Assembly: GCF_017348835.2 (NCBI RefSeq)
Contig: NZ_CP071375.1
Source of the DNA: Escherichia coli
GTDB lineage: Bacteria; Pseudomonadota; Gammaproteobacteria; Enterobacterales; Enterobacteriaceae
Reading direction: 5' to 3' (one strand)
Length of the DNA stretch: 64,000 bases
Part shown: piece after piece, positions 58,990-63,271 of the stretch
Layout of the letters: each line of letters opens with the position of its first letter
Position numbering within the stretch: the stretch's first letter is position 1
Program-made: the position numbers and the translations under genes
The notes under the pieces: generated by a model
What the model saw: only the letters and a program-made list of their open reading frames with translations
Database searches by the model: none
What the model was told of the DNA's origin: nothing

Positions 58990-59215
58990 CCGTGACGAAA
59001 CTGCTCAAAGGCGAGGTATAAAATGAGTTTTTTTGATGAGTTGAAAACCTCTCTGGAAGAGAATGTCGAGATTAGAAAGAACCTGTACGGGTGACCCGCT
59101 ACGAAATTGCGGATGCTTAGGCTATTCGTGAGCAACTTCATACTCCAACCGACCGGTTGCGTAGCCAGAATGCAATCAAATCTGACAGTTCGCTTCGGCG
59201 CGCGCTTTGGTGTAT

Positions 59216-59431
59216 TTACCGGAGTAAATCAGCGTGCCGTGGAAAATTATGCGCAGCGCTTCTGCTGATTTGCGTACCTTCGCAGATGATAAGTCCAGCA
59301 CTGGCGCGCTGCGCGTAATACTCCGCCATCATGTCAATCGTAACGTCACCCGCACCGGCGCGGGAACGCGTCATCGGTGGCAGTACAATACGGTTTATTA
59401 ATGGCAACGCATTCAGCGCATATTTAGCAAA
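59216..59431 (-). pseudogene. remnant of an Old Yellow Enzyme family NADH:flavin oxidoreductase (NemA-like N-terminal ~55 residues only)
   Basis: Reverse-strand frame reads FAKYALNALPLINRIVLPPMTRSRAGAGDVTIDMMAEYYAQRASAGLIICEGTQIS then goes out of frame; bounded upstream by an in-frame stop, no ATG. Confidence 0.55.
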
Positions 59432-59455
59432 TTACGTAATGGGTTCCTCGCGCGA

Positions 59456-59668
59456 TTATTTATACAGTTCGGCACTCATGGTGACGGTATTGCCCATGCG
59501 AGCGCTGGTAATTTTGTATTCAGAGGCGTTCATCTCTTTCGCTTTCTGCGCAATAACCGCTTCAGCGGAATCCAGTGTTGTACCGGTTGCTGTCACGCTT
59601 TGCGCCGATGCGTTAAACGCCGCGACAGAGAAAAGAGAAGCCGTAAAAATTGCGATGATCGTTTTCAT
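59456..59668 (-). CDS. DUF1471 (YdgH/BhsA/McbA family) small periplasmic protein
   Basis: 70 aa from MKTIIAIFTASLFSVAAFNASAQSVTATGTTLDSAEAVIAQKAKEMNASEYKITSARMGNTVTMSAELYK; signal peptide and family-typical C-terminus. Confidence 0.7.
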   Translation of the reverse strand: MKTIIAIFTASLFSVAAFNASAQSVTATGTTLDSAEAVIAQKAKEMNASEYKITSARMGNTVTMSAELYK

Positions 59669-59825
59669 GTTTATATTCCAGAGTGTCTTAATTGTTTGGC
59701 GTTTATTAACGCGATGGGGAGAGAATACGCCTGCTGCCTGATAACATAAATGATACAAATGGCAATAGACTATTCTGTTTTTGTTAATAATCAGACGCCG
59801 GACGTGCCGACGTCTGTCAATCGCA

Positions 59826-60242
59826 TCAGGCAACAAAGTTGTCCTTCAGCGCCTTGAGACCATCCCGATAGATGCCGGTAAACAGCGCCTCGGCTTCTTC
59901 GTCCGTCACATTCACCGGGGTGAATTCACCGAACCATTCCACACGGGAAACCTGGATGTCGGCGGTTTCATGAACGGTAATGGTGGAGAGGTAATCCACC
60001 ACCGGGAACGGTGCCTGAATAATGGAATAGGTATAACTGCGTTGACGGTTATTAAACGCTTCCAGACGTTCAACCACAGTGCCGCCGTCAGAGGTTGTCA
60101 GCGAACGAACGCGACCGCCTTCTGTCACCACACTTTTCGGGATGAATGGCAGCCAGTCTGGCAGCGCATCAAAGCCGCCCATCAATTGCCATACGGCGTC
60201 GGCAGAAGCCGGAATTTCGATCGATACAGTTGTTTTAGCCAT
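59826..60242 (-). CDS. SRPBCC-superfamily protein (polyketide cyclase/dehydrase-like)
   Basis: 138 aa ORF last in a three-gene reverse-strand operon; family assignment from sequence character only. Confidence 0.55.
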   Translation of the reverse strand: MAKTTVSIEIPASADAVWQLMGGFDALPDWLPFIPKSVVTEGGRVRSLTTSDGGTVVERLEAFNNRQRSYTYSIIQAPFPVVDYLSTITVHETADIQVSRVEWFGEFTPVNVTDEEAEALFTGIYRDGLKALKDNFVA

Positions 60243-60267
60243 GATAATTTTCTCTTAATTTATAGGG

Positions 60268-61065: not shown

Positions 61066-61084
61066 CGTTTTCTCACCTGGTTGA

Positions 61085-62095
61085 TTAACGGGTCGGCAGC
61101 GGAGCGTTTTCCGCAACCAGATTTTGACGGCGCATTTCTGCCCAGAATTCAGCCGGAACAGGCGCATTCAGTGCAGCCAGATCTTCTGCCATACGGCCAG
61201 GACGGCTGGAGCCAGGAATAACCGCTGCAACGGCCGGGTTTGCCAGCGCGAACTGCAGCGCAGCTGCTTTAACGTTCACATTGAAACGTGTGGCAATGGC
61301 ATTAATTTGCGCCACTTTCTGCTGGATGGCCGCAGAGGCTTTCTGATATTCAAAGTGCTCGCCGCCTGCCAGTACGCCAGAGCTGTATGGACCGCCCACA
61401 ATGATATCCACGTTCTGTTCCAGTGCTTCTGGCATCAGGCGTTGCAGCGCACGTTCGTGATCCAGCAGGGAATAACGCCCCGCCAGCAGGAACGCATCCG
61501 GCTTCGGTTCGTCCAGCGCCAGCGTCAGTTCGCAAGGTTCGACGCGGTTCACACCCAGTCCCCAGGCTTTAATCACACCTTCGTCACGCAAACGCGTCAG
61601 CGCACGAAATGCACCGGTACGGGCAATGTTGAACTGCTCCAGCCAGCTGTCACCGTAGAAGTCCTGCGCCGGGTCGTGGATCCAGACAATGTCCAGACGG
61701 TCTGTTTTCAGGCGTTTCAGGCTGTCTTCAATCGATCGCAGCGTGGCGTCAGCAGAGTAGTCATTCAGAATTTTGTTTTTCAGGCCGTGTTCGAACAGGC
61801 CACCTTTTTCACCGAAATCCCGTTTTGCCGGATCTTCCATTTCGTCCAGCATGATGCGACCGACTTTGCTACTCAGAACGTATTCATCGCGTGGATACTG
61901 AGACAGCGCTTCACCCATGCGGATTTCAGAAAGGCCAGAGCCGTACAGCGGCGCGGTATCAAAGTAACGCACACCCAGGTTCCAGGCTTCGCTCACGGTG
62001 GCGTGGGCCTCTTCTTCCGGAATGGCACGGAACATGTTGCCAAGTGGTGCGCCGCCTAAGCCAATTTTGCCGGGGAGTAAATTTTTAATGCTCAT
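61085..62095 (-). CDS. aldo-keto reductase family oxidoreductase
   Basis: 336 aa MSIKNLLPGKIGLGGAPLGNMFRAIPEEEAHATVSEAWNLGVRYFDTAPLYGSGLSEIRMGEAL...; AKR fold signature. Confidence 0.8.
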   Translation of the reverse strand: MSIKNLLPGKIGLGGAPLGNMFRAIPEEEAHATVSEAWNLGVRYFDTAPLYGSGLSEIRMGEALSQYPRDEYVLSSKVGRIMLDEMEDPAKRDFGEKGGLFEHGLKNKILNDYSADATLRSIEDSLKRLKTDRLDIVWIHDPAQDFYGDSWLEQFNIARTGAFRALTRLRDEGVIKAWGLGVNRVEPCELTLALDEPKPDAFLLAGRYSLLDHERALQRLMPEALEQNVDIIVGGPYSSGVLAGGEHFEYQKASAAIQQKVAQINAIATRFNVNVKAAALQFALANPAVAAVIPGSSRPGRMAEDLAALNAPVPAEFWAEMRRQNLVAENAPLPTR

Positions 62096-62228
62096 AAGAT
62101 GTCCTCAATTATTCGGTTTGGGTTAGGGCGTTTTTTTGCTATCGCCCTGTGACGTGGATCACAATACCTTGCGAGGTTGTGACTTGATAGGACATAATTC
62201 GTCTGACTTAAGTCCTTTGAGGTCTAAC

Positions 62229-63116
62229 ATGATTGATTTACGCCAACTGAAGTACTTCGTGGTGGTCGCAGAAGAAGAGCACGTGGGACGCGCAGCCGAG
62301 CGATTACATATCTCGCAATCGCCGCTGAGCCGCCAGATTGCACAACTGGAAGAACGACTGGGGCTGACGCTGTTTGAGCGTAATCAGCAGCGCATTCGCC
62401 TGACCGCTGATGGACAGACATTCCTTGCCGAAACACGTTCGTTGCTGACACACGCCAACCGCCTGGAGTCGTTAGGCAAACGCCTGGGACGGGGGGAAGA
62501 TGGTGGCTTGTGTATTGGCTATATCGAAAACGCCATGCATTCCGGTGTGCTTTCTACGGCGCTACGTACGTTACGTGTATCGCGTCCGAATGTGCATATC
62601 GCACTTTACAGCCAACCACCGGCTACCCAGATTGAAGGCCTGCGCCAGCGCAGTCTCGATTTTTCTCTGGTCGATACGCCGCCCACCGACAGCGAGCAGG
62701 ATCTGGAATATATTCAGGTTCTGGATGATCGAATGTTGTTGGCCTTACCGCAAAATCATCCTCTGGCGCAGGAGGAAAACCTTGTCGCGTCACAACTTGG
62801 CGATGAGCAGTGGATTGCGGTGATTCATAACGACGATGCGCATTCTCGCGATCATTTTGTCGCCGCCTGTGTTAACGCCGGGTTTAATCCTGATATTCGC
62901 CTGGAAGCGGGTGAACCCCTCACGGCATTAGGTCTGGTCGCTGCGGGATTAGGTCTGGCCTTAATTCAACATAGTCTGCGTCATAATGCGCCGGAAGGGG
63001 TGGTATTACGTGAATTGCCGTGGATGAATTATTCAACGCAATTATGGGCAGCCTGGCATAAAGCCAACCAACGTCCGCTGGTTTCCCATTTCCGCCAGAT
63101 TCTGCGCGGTGAATAA
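62229..63116 (+). CDS. LysR-family transcriptional regulator, divergent from the AKR-SDR-SRPBCC operon
   Basis: From MIDLRQLKYFVVVAEEEHVGRAAERLHISQSPLSRQIAQLEERLGLTLFERNQQRIRLT...; N-terminal LysR HTH plus substrate-binding domain. Confidence 0.85.
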   Translation: MIDLRQLKYFVVVAEEEHVGRAAERLHISQSPLSRQIAQLEERLGLTLFERNQQRIRLTADGQTFLAETRSLLTHANRLESLGKRLGRGEDGGLCIGYIENAMHSGVLSTALRTLRVSRPNVHIALYSQPPATQIEGLRQRSLDFSLVDTPPTDSEQDLEYIQVLDDRMLLALPQNHPLAQEENLVASQLGDEQWIAVIHNDDAHSRDHFVAACVNAGFNPDIRLEAGEPLTALGLVAAGLGLALIQHSLRHNAPEGVVLRELPWMNYSTQLWAAWHKANQRPLVSHFRQILRGE

Positions 63117-63122
63117 AACGTT

Positions 63123-63148
63123 AAGCGGGAACCATGAGTTCCCGCTTG
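63123..63148 (+). terminator. hairpin after the LysR gene (aagcgggaac-catg-agttcccgctt)
   Basis: 10-bp inverted repeat 6 nt after the stop codon. Confidence 0.5.
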
Positions 63149-63271
63149 AGTTGAGATGTCAGTCCGCATCTGAGCTAATACACTTAAAGAAAATTCTGCC
63201 TTTTTCCGGGGACTCATCATTTAACTAATGCCGGATGCGGTGCTGGCGCGCCGCTTCCGGCATTTTACGCA

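Follow-up and report, generated by a model that had tools for sequence, protein, structure and literature searches.

An accessory oxidoreductase operon with a divergent LysR-type regulator between nadR and ettA of Escherichia coli: a candidate carbonyl-redox cassette

Which system occupies the space between nadR and ettA in this Escherichia coli strain, and what might it do? The stretch of DNA analysed here (the window) is 64,000 nt of contig NZ_CP071375.1 (assembly GCF_017348835.2), and all coordinates are window positions. The open reading frame (ORF) table places nadR at 57757..58989 on the plus strand, with its stop at 58989. The stop codon of ettA starts at 63272, and the 3′ part of this gene (63272..64000, minus strand) runs off the window. 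The spacer of 4,282 bp holds a LysR-type regulator gene (62229..63116, plus strand, 295 aa) and, divergent from it, a minus-strand operon. The first gene of the operon encodes an aldo-keto reductase (AKR; 61085..62095, 336 aa), followed by the genes for a classical short-chain dehydrogenase/reductase (SDR; 60268..61065, 265 aa) and an SRPBCC protein (59826..60242, 138 aa). A DUF1471 gene (59456..59668, minus strand, 70 aa) and a dead Old Yellow Enzyme (OYE) gene (59194..59437, minus strand) also lie in the spacer. RefSeq lists an identical gene set under generic names for strain PE164, whose sequence matches this region at 100% identity. A preliminary description of this DNA had reported about 4.3 kb with these genes, and its coordinates agree with both the ORF table and the PE164 annotation; the operon spacers of 20–26 nt given there have to be corrected to 19 and 25 nt.

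The block is an uncharacterised accessory LysR-regulated oxidoreductase operon, that is, a familiar kind of system and not a new one. We propose, with moderate confidence, that it acts as a LysR-activated NAD(P)H carbonyl-redox or detoxification cassette with the AKR–SRPBCC pair as its functional core. Equivalog-level NCBIfam matches were obtained for nadR (NadR model, 794.7 bits against a cutoff of 201) and ettA (EttA profile positions 325–555 of 556, in line with the name given by the Prokaryotic Genome Annotation Pipeline, PGAP) only. The module proteins matched superfamily-level models, all under the curated cutoffs. Full-text literature searches with the cassette families, the locus, the accessions and xoxI returned no publication on the cassette and no named pathway, so the earlier statement that no named pathway could be assigned holds. 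None of the PADLOC anti-phage models was matched by any of the five module proteins. When the block is treated as a single regulated unit with a conserved operator, four anonymous annotations become one testable system. Three features add interest: AKR and SRPBCC are tightly paired across phyla, the operator is conserved, and the SRPBCC protein is akin to plant hormone receptors.

The scan for AKR relatives covered one genome per GTDB species and found 571 matched stretches, and the gene order was read in the best 80 loci. Nearly all of these 80 kept the order of LysR divergent from AKR-SDR-SRPBCC, with near-constant spacing. Collinear loci were found in Escherichia, Trabulsiella, Yokenella, Yersinia, Raoultella, Klebsiella, Serratia, Providencia, Ewingella, Acinetobacter and approximately 55 Pseudomonas species. 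The SDR gene is missing from a three-gene form that was present in some Pseudomonas, in Streptomyces, and also in Burkholderiales and Bacillales. The same arrangement was also found on large replicons that are recorded as plasmids, in Ewingella, Caballeronia, Streptomyces, Bacillus and Paraburkholderia. Pseudomonas simiae and many genomes of the P. fluorescens group have the cassette too, and the SRPBCC orthologue gene is very widespread in Klebsiella pneumoniae assemblies. The tight divergent arrangement, which the preliminary description had read from this one locus, is conserved over dozens of genera with a common operator.

The AKR gene stood immediately upstream of the SRPBCC gene in all six further lineages sampled (Paenibacillus, Paludibaculum, Dyella, Rhizobium, Pseudogulbenkiania and Cupriavidus), and in Paenibacillus and Paludibaculum the AKR stop and SRPBCC start codons overlap. 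Clustering of the flanking ORFs showed that four families alone (LysR, AKR, SDR and SRPBCC) recur across genera; no transporter or further pathway enzyme recurred with the cassette among the clustered ORFs. The AKR is 72–78% identical between E. coli, Pseudomonas, Streptomyces and a Bacillales genome, and the LysR and SRPBCC proteins are approximately 60–75% identical across cassette loci. On this gene order, the core of the unit appears to be an obligate AKR–SRPBCC pair, with the SDR as an optional insert. The ratio of nonsynonymous to synonymous substitution rates (dN/dS) was 0.01–0.21 for all five intact genes where computable, also in comparisons with copies at dS 0.4–0.9. The individual values were 0.014–0.037 for the AKR gene, 0–0.09 for the SDR gene, 0.03–0.07 for lysR where computable, and 0.07–0.18 for the DUF1471 gene. 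Judged from these ratios, the five genes appear to be kept by selection.

Several neighbouring observations were made in the same searches. Sensor-kinase-like and DinB-like ORFs conserved beside the cassette in Pseudomonas represented within-genus synteny only and were dropped as cassette parts. In the metagenomic protein P0413 (217 aa), the C-terminal end of an AKR is joined in frame to an SRPBCC domain in what appears to be a clean read-through fusion; if genuine, this fusion supports a physical AKR–SRPBCC partnership. A second metagenomic protein, P0453 (231 aa), also joins an AKR C-terminus to an SRPBCC domain and resembles a frameshift artefact. A 1,397-bp contig of a 'Collinsella sp.' metagenome-assembled genome carried an AKR with 99% identity to the E. 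coli protein, together with an intergenic region that does not differ from that of the window. Mis-binning of E. coli DNA into an Actinomycetota genome is the most likely origin of this contig.

How might the unit be controlled? The lysR–akr intergenic region is 133 bp long and contains one block (within 62165..62225) that is at least 90% conserved in an alignment of 79 loci, including Duganella and Streptomyces. The motif of the block, AGACCT-N5-GGACTyAAGT...ATTATGTCyT-N5-GTC, is kept from E. coli to Streptomyces. It forms an imperfect dyad with arms at 62181..62198 and 62207..62224, 8 bp apart, of which one is an exact motif match and the other an inverted match with 2 mismatches. Across the whole window the motif matched 6 times, against 2.1 expected. 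The dyad lies approximately 107 bp upstream of the AKR start codon. The promoter scan called a sigma70-like lysR promoter (TTGCGA-18-CATAAT, 62169..62198) whose −10 box falls inside one dyad arm. This layout would fit classical LysR-type self-repression combined with activation of the divergent operon. In the mechanism that we propose, LysR would bind the dyad operator (62181..62224), overlapping its own promoter, and effector-bound LysR would activate transcription of akr-sdr-srpbcc. A strong stem-loop follows the LysR stop codon (63123..63147, plus strand; −20.5 kcal/mol, z = −6.1) and was called by the terminator scan in the minus-strand reading.

The LysR protein gave full-length alignments to more than 50 NCBIfam models of LysR-type transcriptional regulators (LTTRs), including AlsR, PRK09986, GltC, HcaR, CatM and BenM, all below the equivalog cutoffs. 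The best match was AlsR, with 223 bits against a cutoff of 430. LysR orthologues carry the HTH_1 (PF00126) and LysR_substrate (PF03466) domains. The relatives in the PDB were ItcR (7w06), an itaconate sensor and the best match, followed by BenM and CatM. The regulator has in common with BenM/CatM, ItcR, AlsR and HcaR the full-length LTTR architecture, a divergent gene, and a dyad overlapping the regulator's own promoter. It differs from them in that all matches are below equivalog level and the operator sequence is specific to the cassette.

What reactions might the enzymes perform? The Aldo_ket_red domain (PF00248) was found on the 99%-identical cluster representative of the AKR, on all homologues and on the Klebsiella orthologue. 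The catalytic tetrad Asp46, Tyr51 (FDTAPLYG), Lys77 (SSKVG) and His140 (WIHDP) aligns with that of L-galactose dehydrogenases. Plant L-galactose dehydrogenases are the best solved relatives (E = 1e-29 to 1e-22), and several AKR orthologues are labelled 'D-threo-aldose 1-dehydrogenase' in IMG and NCBI. With sugar 1-dehydrogenases as the closest relatives of solved structure, homology does not fix which reaction the AKR catalyses or in which direction.

The AKR relatives bear on a different explanation, in which the operon catabolises or salvages a sugar-like lactol in a short peripheral step. The AKR would use NAD(P)+ as an aldose 1-dehydrogenase (L-fucose, L-galactose, D-arabinose or pyridoxal type) and yield a lactone, and the SDR and SRPBCC proteins would process the product. 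The shared tetrad, the aldose dehydrogenase labels, SDR relatives that include sorbose reductase and glucose 1-dehydrogenase-type models, and the resemblance of LysR to organic-acid-sensing regulators would all suit such a step. However, the similarity to L-galactose dehydrogenase is local, with two segments aligning (best E = 1.4e-29), and no NCBIfam equivalog model for an L-galactose or D-threo-aldose 1-dehydrogenase matches the AKR. The labels are automatic annotations. No sugar-pathway genes surround the cassette; no lactonase, dehydratase, kinase, aldolase or transporter was linked in the loci examined, and the recurring neighbours are of the OYE or detoxification type. We consider the lactol explanation unlikely, although it deserves attention.

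The SDR shows the motifs of its family in the sequence: a Gly-rich SGSTSGIG, NNLG, and the residues Ser141, Tyr154 and Lys158. Its Klebsiella orthologue carries PF00106 and PF13561. The closest structure is PDB 8g9m from Acinetobacter (E = 9e-138), which shares 82.5% identity with the window protein and 97% with the SDR of an Acinetobacter cassette copy, and is thus an orthologous cassette SDR. The Bacillus anthracis SDR 3t4x is a clear relative (E = 1.4e-70). Both are structural-genomics entries deposited without substrate or function. The SDR has Arg39-Lys40 after strand 2. In the coenzyme-based classification of SDRs, an Arg-Lys pair at this place indicates NADP(H), which suggests NADP(H) as the likely cofactor here.

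The SRPBCC protein matched Polyketide_cyc2 (PF10604, E = 1.3e-29) over residues 1–136 and has no signal peptide. Its AlphaFold2 model (pLDDT 92.7) shows a helix-grip fold with beta-alpha-alpha-beta6-alpha topology. The closest structures are the XoxI-family proteins 3cnw and 3f08 of Bacillus cereus and B. thuringiensis (E = 1e-52 and 2.4e-51; 60–62% identity; TM-score 0.96–0.98, with 0.97 for 3cnw), which belong to the same family and have the same length. They come from structural genomics without a function, and the XoxI name, which some sources also give to the E. coli and Klebsiella orthologues, says nothing about mechanism. The name was presumably inherited from an uncharacterised ORF of the Paracoccus xox locus. 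Structures thus exist for the SDR (8g9m and 3t4x) as well as the SRPBCC protein, none with an assigned function. Across 26 orthologues, 30 positions were invariant, including R46, E58, R59, Y70, Y72, Y84 and W103. These invariant polar and aromatic residues suggest a specific pocket and not a generic lipid carrier. A toxin role was rejected, as the match to Rv0910 covered 33 residues with 21 bits against a cutoff of 100.

The XoxI-like family comprises 3,938 clusters (50% identity) at E ≤ 1e-3 in a profile search of 1.84 billion representatives, and all 150 profile matches listed stayed within the bacterial family. Variants include tandem two-domain proteins of 278–338 aa and forms with 25–35-residue N-terminal extensions. 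In one 550-aa protein, P0543, the domain is C-terminal and follows a hydrophobic, signal-like N-terminus.

Comparison of the SRPBCC model with the PDB returned its own family, then two uncharacterised bacterial proteins, and then nearly the whole set of plant PYR/PYL/RCAR receptors of abscisic acid (ABA), with TM-scores of 0.80–0.89. Alignment with PYR1 by hhalign gave a probability of 90.8% (E = 1.2e-6), and in a reverse phmmer search from PYR1, 3cnw and 3f08 were the sole PDB relatives from outside plants. The plant receptors are thus the nearest characterised family, sharing the helix-grip fold and an ERL-x-F/L-D/N...R..Y/F-SI...Y.S..TVH core. The differences are substantial in the ligand-binding parts. 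Lys59 of PYR1, which contacts the ABA carboxylate, is replaced by Leu31, invariant in the 26 orthologues; the SGLPA gate falls in an 8-residue gap; and the HRL latch reads PFP. The receptors have approximately 190 aa against 138 aa, and the bacterial protein is encoded in a reductase operon without a phosphatase partner. Because the ligand-binding lysine and the gate loop are missing, an ABA receptor role was ruled out.

The same kinship raises the question of whether the operon could be a sensing or signal-modifying unit. The PYL-like SRPBCC protein would then be the receptor or carrier of a hormone-like compound (a terpenoid acid, lactone or oxo-lipid), and the AKR and SDR would interconvert its active and inactive forms. 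The structural rank of the PYR/PYL receptors and the PYR1 alignments are consistent with such a role, as is one bacterial PYL homologue that binds plant PP2C phosphatases weakly in a 2025 study (PMC12717121). In the same study, however, the tested bacterial PYL homologues were unresponsive to ABA, and PrPYL showed no ABA binding by isothermal titration calorimetry (PMC12717121); membership of the published proteins (WP_102636708.1 and WP_096480507.1) in the XoxI family could not be confirmed by cluster look-ups. The invariant leucine and the absent gate also argue against a receptor, and no PP2C or other signalling partner was found among the genes linked to the cassette. A signalling unit is in our judgement quite unlikely. 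The words 'operon', 'gene cluster' and 'aldo' are absent from the 2025 study (PMC12717121).

A bolder version of the proposed cassette can be put forward as a speculation that we regard as doubtful. AKR and SRPBCC would form an obligate two-protein system that spread horizontally over at least four phyla, the SRPBCC protein would come from the bacterial family from which the plant PYR/PYL receptors derive, and the reductase and the PYL-like pocket would share a carbonyl substrate. If this were true, the natural substrate would reveal the ancestral ligand chemistry of the PYR/PYL family, and the search for it could start from E. coli and Klebsiella carriers as genetically tractable models. Should the relationship of SRPBCC to the ABA receptors prove real at family level, its operon setting would offer a genomic clue to the role of bacterial PYL-like proteins.

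Which function best accounts for the cassette as a whole? Detoxification on induction is the role that we consider most likely, with a reactive carbonyl compound (an enal, enone, quinone or dicarbonyl) as its target, rather than the catabolism of a nutrient. A regulator with two or three enzymes, no transporter and a broad horizontal spread fits detoxification or conversion better than a catabolic pathway. In the proposed carbonyl-redox cassette, the AKR and SDR would both act on a single small molecule, in carbonyl/alcohol redox steps that depend on nicotinamide cofactors. Invariant Arg, Glu, Tyr and Trp residues line the helix-grip cavity of the cytoplasmic SRPBCC protein, where the same molecule would be held or transformed. 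The parts of this scheme that we infer are the control by an effector, the direction of the enzymes, their cofactor, the class of substrate and what the SRPBCC protein does. The detoxification of an electrophile, quinone or aldehyde, which the preliminary description had suggested, is plausible by association with neighbouring genes. The cassette could explain strain differences within E. coli in tolerance to some reactive compound.

The neighbours of the AKR–SRPBCC pair give hints about the substrate class. OYE genes are adjacent or close to the pair in three unrelated lineages (Enterobacterales, Paludibaculum and Cupriavidus), and such recurrent neighbours weakly favour unsaturated carbonyl or quinone electrophiles. 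The Paludibaculum fermentans locus (545..8502) has the pair in one same-strand run with genes for DJ-1/PfpI, zinc-dependent alcohol dehydrogenase, glyoxalase-fold, ABM monooxygenase, OYE, aldehyde dehydrogenase and HbpS-like proteins. This neighbourhood looks like one of reactive-carbonyl detoxification. Together with the DUF1471 gene of Enterobacterales, it may point weakly to reactive carbonyls. In Paenibacillus, AKR-SRPBCC is immediately preceded by an additional glyceraldehyde-3-phosphate dehydrogenase gene (2757..3755 of the locus), and on a Streptomyces plasmid such a gene lies less than 4 kb from the cassette (1..79 of the locus). These neighbours may be coincidence or may hint at an electrophile that targets glyceraldehyde-3-phosphate dehydrogenase.

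Several points weigh against the detoxification cassette. The nearest solved relatives of the AKR are the plant L-galactose dehydrogenases, and these, with the automatic D-threo-aldose labels of its orthologues, would imply an oxidative sugar step and not carbonyl reduction. The cofactor preference comes from a motif only. The effector domain of LysR is nearest to sensors of small carboxylic acids (BenM, CatM, ItcR and AlsR) and not to typical electrophile sensors. No akr promoter was called by the consensus scan. The OYE link is absent from most loci, including those of Pseudomonas, Klebsiella and Acinetobacter, and OYE is dispensable here as a pseudogene. No publication bearing on the cassette was found in the literature searched.

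Do the OYE and DUF1471 genes belong to the unit? The OYE remnant was compared by tblastn with the intact 365-aa OYE of E. coli E69. Residues 3–61 aligned at 59431..59255, and residues 275–310 aligned at 59295..59194 in another frame. The start codon has changed from ATG to ACG, codon 3 is TAA, and relative to the E69 copy there is a 686-bp out-of-frame internal deletion and the final ~167 bp are gone. An intact Oxidored_FMN reading frame is accordingly lacking in the window; the 365-aa gene is intact in two sister copies including that of E69. The truncated OYE gene of the preliminary description is present, then, as a dead, NemA-like pseudogene. The intact OYE of the sister copies scored 396 bits on the subfamily model of NemA, the N-ethylmaleimide reductase of E. 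coli, slightly below the model cutoff of 403.

The DUF1471 gene encodes a small periplasmic protein of the YhcN-BhsA-like type according to its PGAP name. The protein gave weak NCBIfam matches to BhsA, RclB, YhcN and YbiJ, all far under the cutoffs, and its Klebsiella orthologue carries PF07338. Its N-terminus (MKTIIAIFTASLFSVAAFNASA) resembles a signal peptide when read by eye. The general background of the NemA and BhsA/RclB/YhcN families suggests an electrophile or oxidant stress theme. Linkage of the DUF1471 gene to the cassette was limited to Enterobacterales, and neither this gene nor OYE belongs to the cross-phylum core. Both are Enterobacterales-era add-ons, of which OYE is dead in the window strain.

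A stem-loop lies directly 3′ of the SRPBCC stop codon (59793..59817, minus strand; −16.8 kcal/mol, z = −2.6). It has no proper U-tract and was not called by the terminator scan, so that it is possibly a weak terminator or a processing site. No operator copy was found upstream of the DUF1471 gene or the OYE remnant. Given the missing operator copy and the stem-loop without a U-tract, co-regulation of DUF1471 with the operon is uncertain. The preliminary description had placed two or three reductase families under LysR. Two of them, AKR and SDR, are plausible; the third, OYE, is dead and lies beyond the hairpin and the separately spaced DUF1471 gene with no operator nearby. Rfam gave no match.

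Where does the block sit, and how did it come to be there? In a K-12-derived genome, the nadR–ettA spacer is 307 bp (2289..2595 of its locus) and consists of a 55-codon nadS fragment followed by repeats of the repetitive extragenic palindromic (REP) type, which fill 2436..2595; the earlier statement that the two genes are adjacent in K-12 was essentially right. In a third allele, the spacer (2291..3055 of its locus) has the RelE/ParE toxin gene intact, along with nadS at its full 94 codons. NadS is a curated helix-turn-helix, antitoxin-like family. In the window, BLAST against the other alleles showed that the module is flanked by both halves of a broken nadS. The 5′ remnant (59023..59137, plus strand) is 88% identical to nadS of the RelE/ParE-NadS allele and of K-12, and has a 10-bp deletion. 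The 3′ remnant (63180..63229, plus strand) is part of a match from 63180 to 63366, which is 89% identical to the RelE/ParE-NadS allele over the nadS 3′ end and the adjoining spacer on the ettA side. Its translation ends in ...LKENSAFFRGLII before the stop, as compared with ...IKENPAFFRELASH in intact NadS. A REP-like inverted repeat (63227..63264; 17-nt arms, 88% complementary) lies between this remnant and the ettA stop codon.

The nadS pieces on either side indicate that the module lies inside nadS, in a lineage that was already without the toxin gene. No intact RelE/ParE-NadS toxin-antitoxin pair was found at the window locus, which lacks the toxin gene and has nadS only as decayed, separated pieces. 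The segment common to other Escherichia copies is 59193..63147, and homology to the E69 copy ends at 63147. Two fillers remain at the junctions. The left one (59138..59192, 55 bp) had no match to nadS or other Escherichia module copies, and the right one (63148..63179, 32 bp) had no significant match to either. Reading these fillers as diverged nadS was dropped, as their alignment scores, for the left filler against the middle of nadS, did not exceed those of shuffled sequence. The interior of nadS as the site of the block and the cross-phylum spread of the cassette had both been missed in the preliminary description.

The frequency of the module was determined in 5,426 complete E. coli genomes. 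It was present in 482 (approximately 9%), always as a single chromosomal copy with 98–100% identity at a query coverage of at least 80%, and no plasmid carriage was seen among these carriers. In 481 of the 482, it lay between nadR and ettA. The carriers include O145:H28 Shiga toxin-producing E. coli strains and the porcine extraintestinal pathogenic strain PCN033. The intact toxin-nadS pair occupied the site in 673 of the genomes; in about 460, for example those of sequence type ST131, the toxin-nadS query had no match, that is, nadS was undetected. The majority of the remaining genomes, like K-12, have the nadS 5′ fragment and REP repeats only. The nadR–ettA spacer is a polymorphic spot with at least four states in E. 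coli. The accessory status claimed for the block at the outset is borne out by these counts and by its absence from K-12; a place in the conserved core of most E. coli, which would have refuted that claim, is contradicted by them.

These counts and the decayed genes also bear on the explanation that the block is a functionless hitch-hiking remnant, brought by recombination and now decaying. The OYE pseudogene and the broken nadS show decay at the locus, and 91% of E. coli lack the block without obvious cost. Against this, the five remaining genes keep low dN/dS values even at the highest divergences compared, the block is near full length in all 482 carriers, and the cassette and its operator are conserved across phyla. 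We regard a functionless remnant as very improbable. According to the detoxification reading, the block would have been gained horizontally, landed in the decayed nadS between nadR and ettA of an E. coli lineage, and then been kept by selection. The GC content rises from approximately 0.50 in the flanks to 0.54–0.60 over the SDR and AKR genes.

The module occupies three different chromosomal sites in Escherichia. In E. coli E69, a 97.7% identical module with an intact OYE gene (6949..11756 of the locus) adjoins yhiN/pitA, followed by the anti-phage gene ProA. In Escherichia whittamii, the module (6946..11111 of the locus) lies between glyS and ghrB, and its OYE gene has the same 686-bp deletion as in the window. 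Klebsiella has a five-gene version without OYE, sited after gabDTP-csiR. No integrase, transposase or insertion sequence element was found among the ORFs of the block, and flanking direct or inverted repeats were not beyond chance. The differing sites imply that the module moved without mobility genes of its own. A self-mobile genomic island was rejected as an explanation, with neither an integrase, a transposase or insertion sequence, flanking repeats nor a tRNA target in its favour.

Comparison of the core flanks with the K-12-derived genome showed 96.2% DNA identity for radA-nadR (56702..59126) and 97.4% for ettA (63230..64000). The stretch 57000..64000 was found at 100% identity in two genomes only, those of the pig isolates PE164 and F2_81. 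The low flank identity to K-12 and the few identical genomes suggest a divergent lineage or a recombinant segment. Elsewhere in the window, two arrays (45723..46140 and 38001..38095) contain repeats that are approximately 76–78% identical to the sequence between nadS and ettA of K-12, which resembles REP elements and bacterial interspersed mosaic elements.

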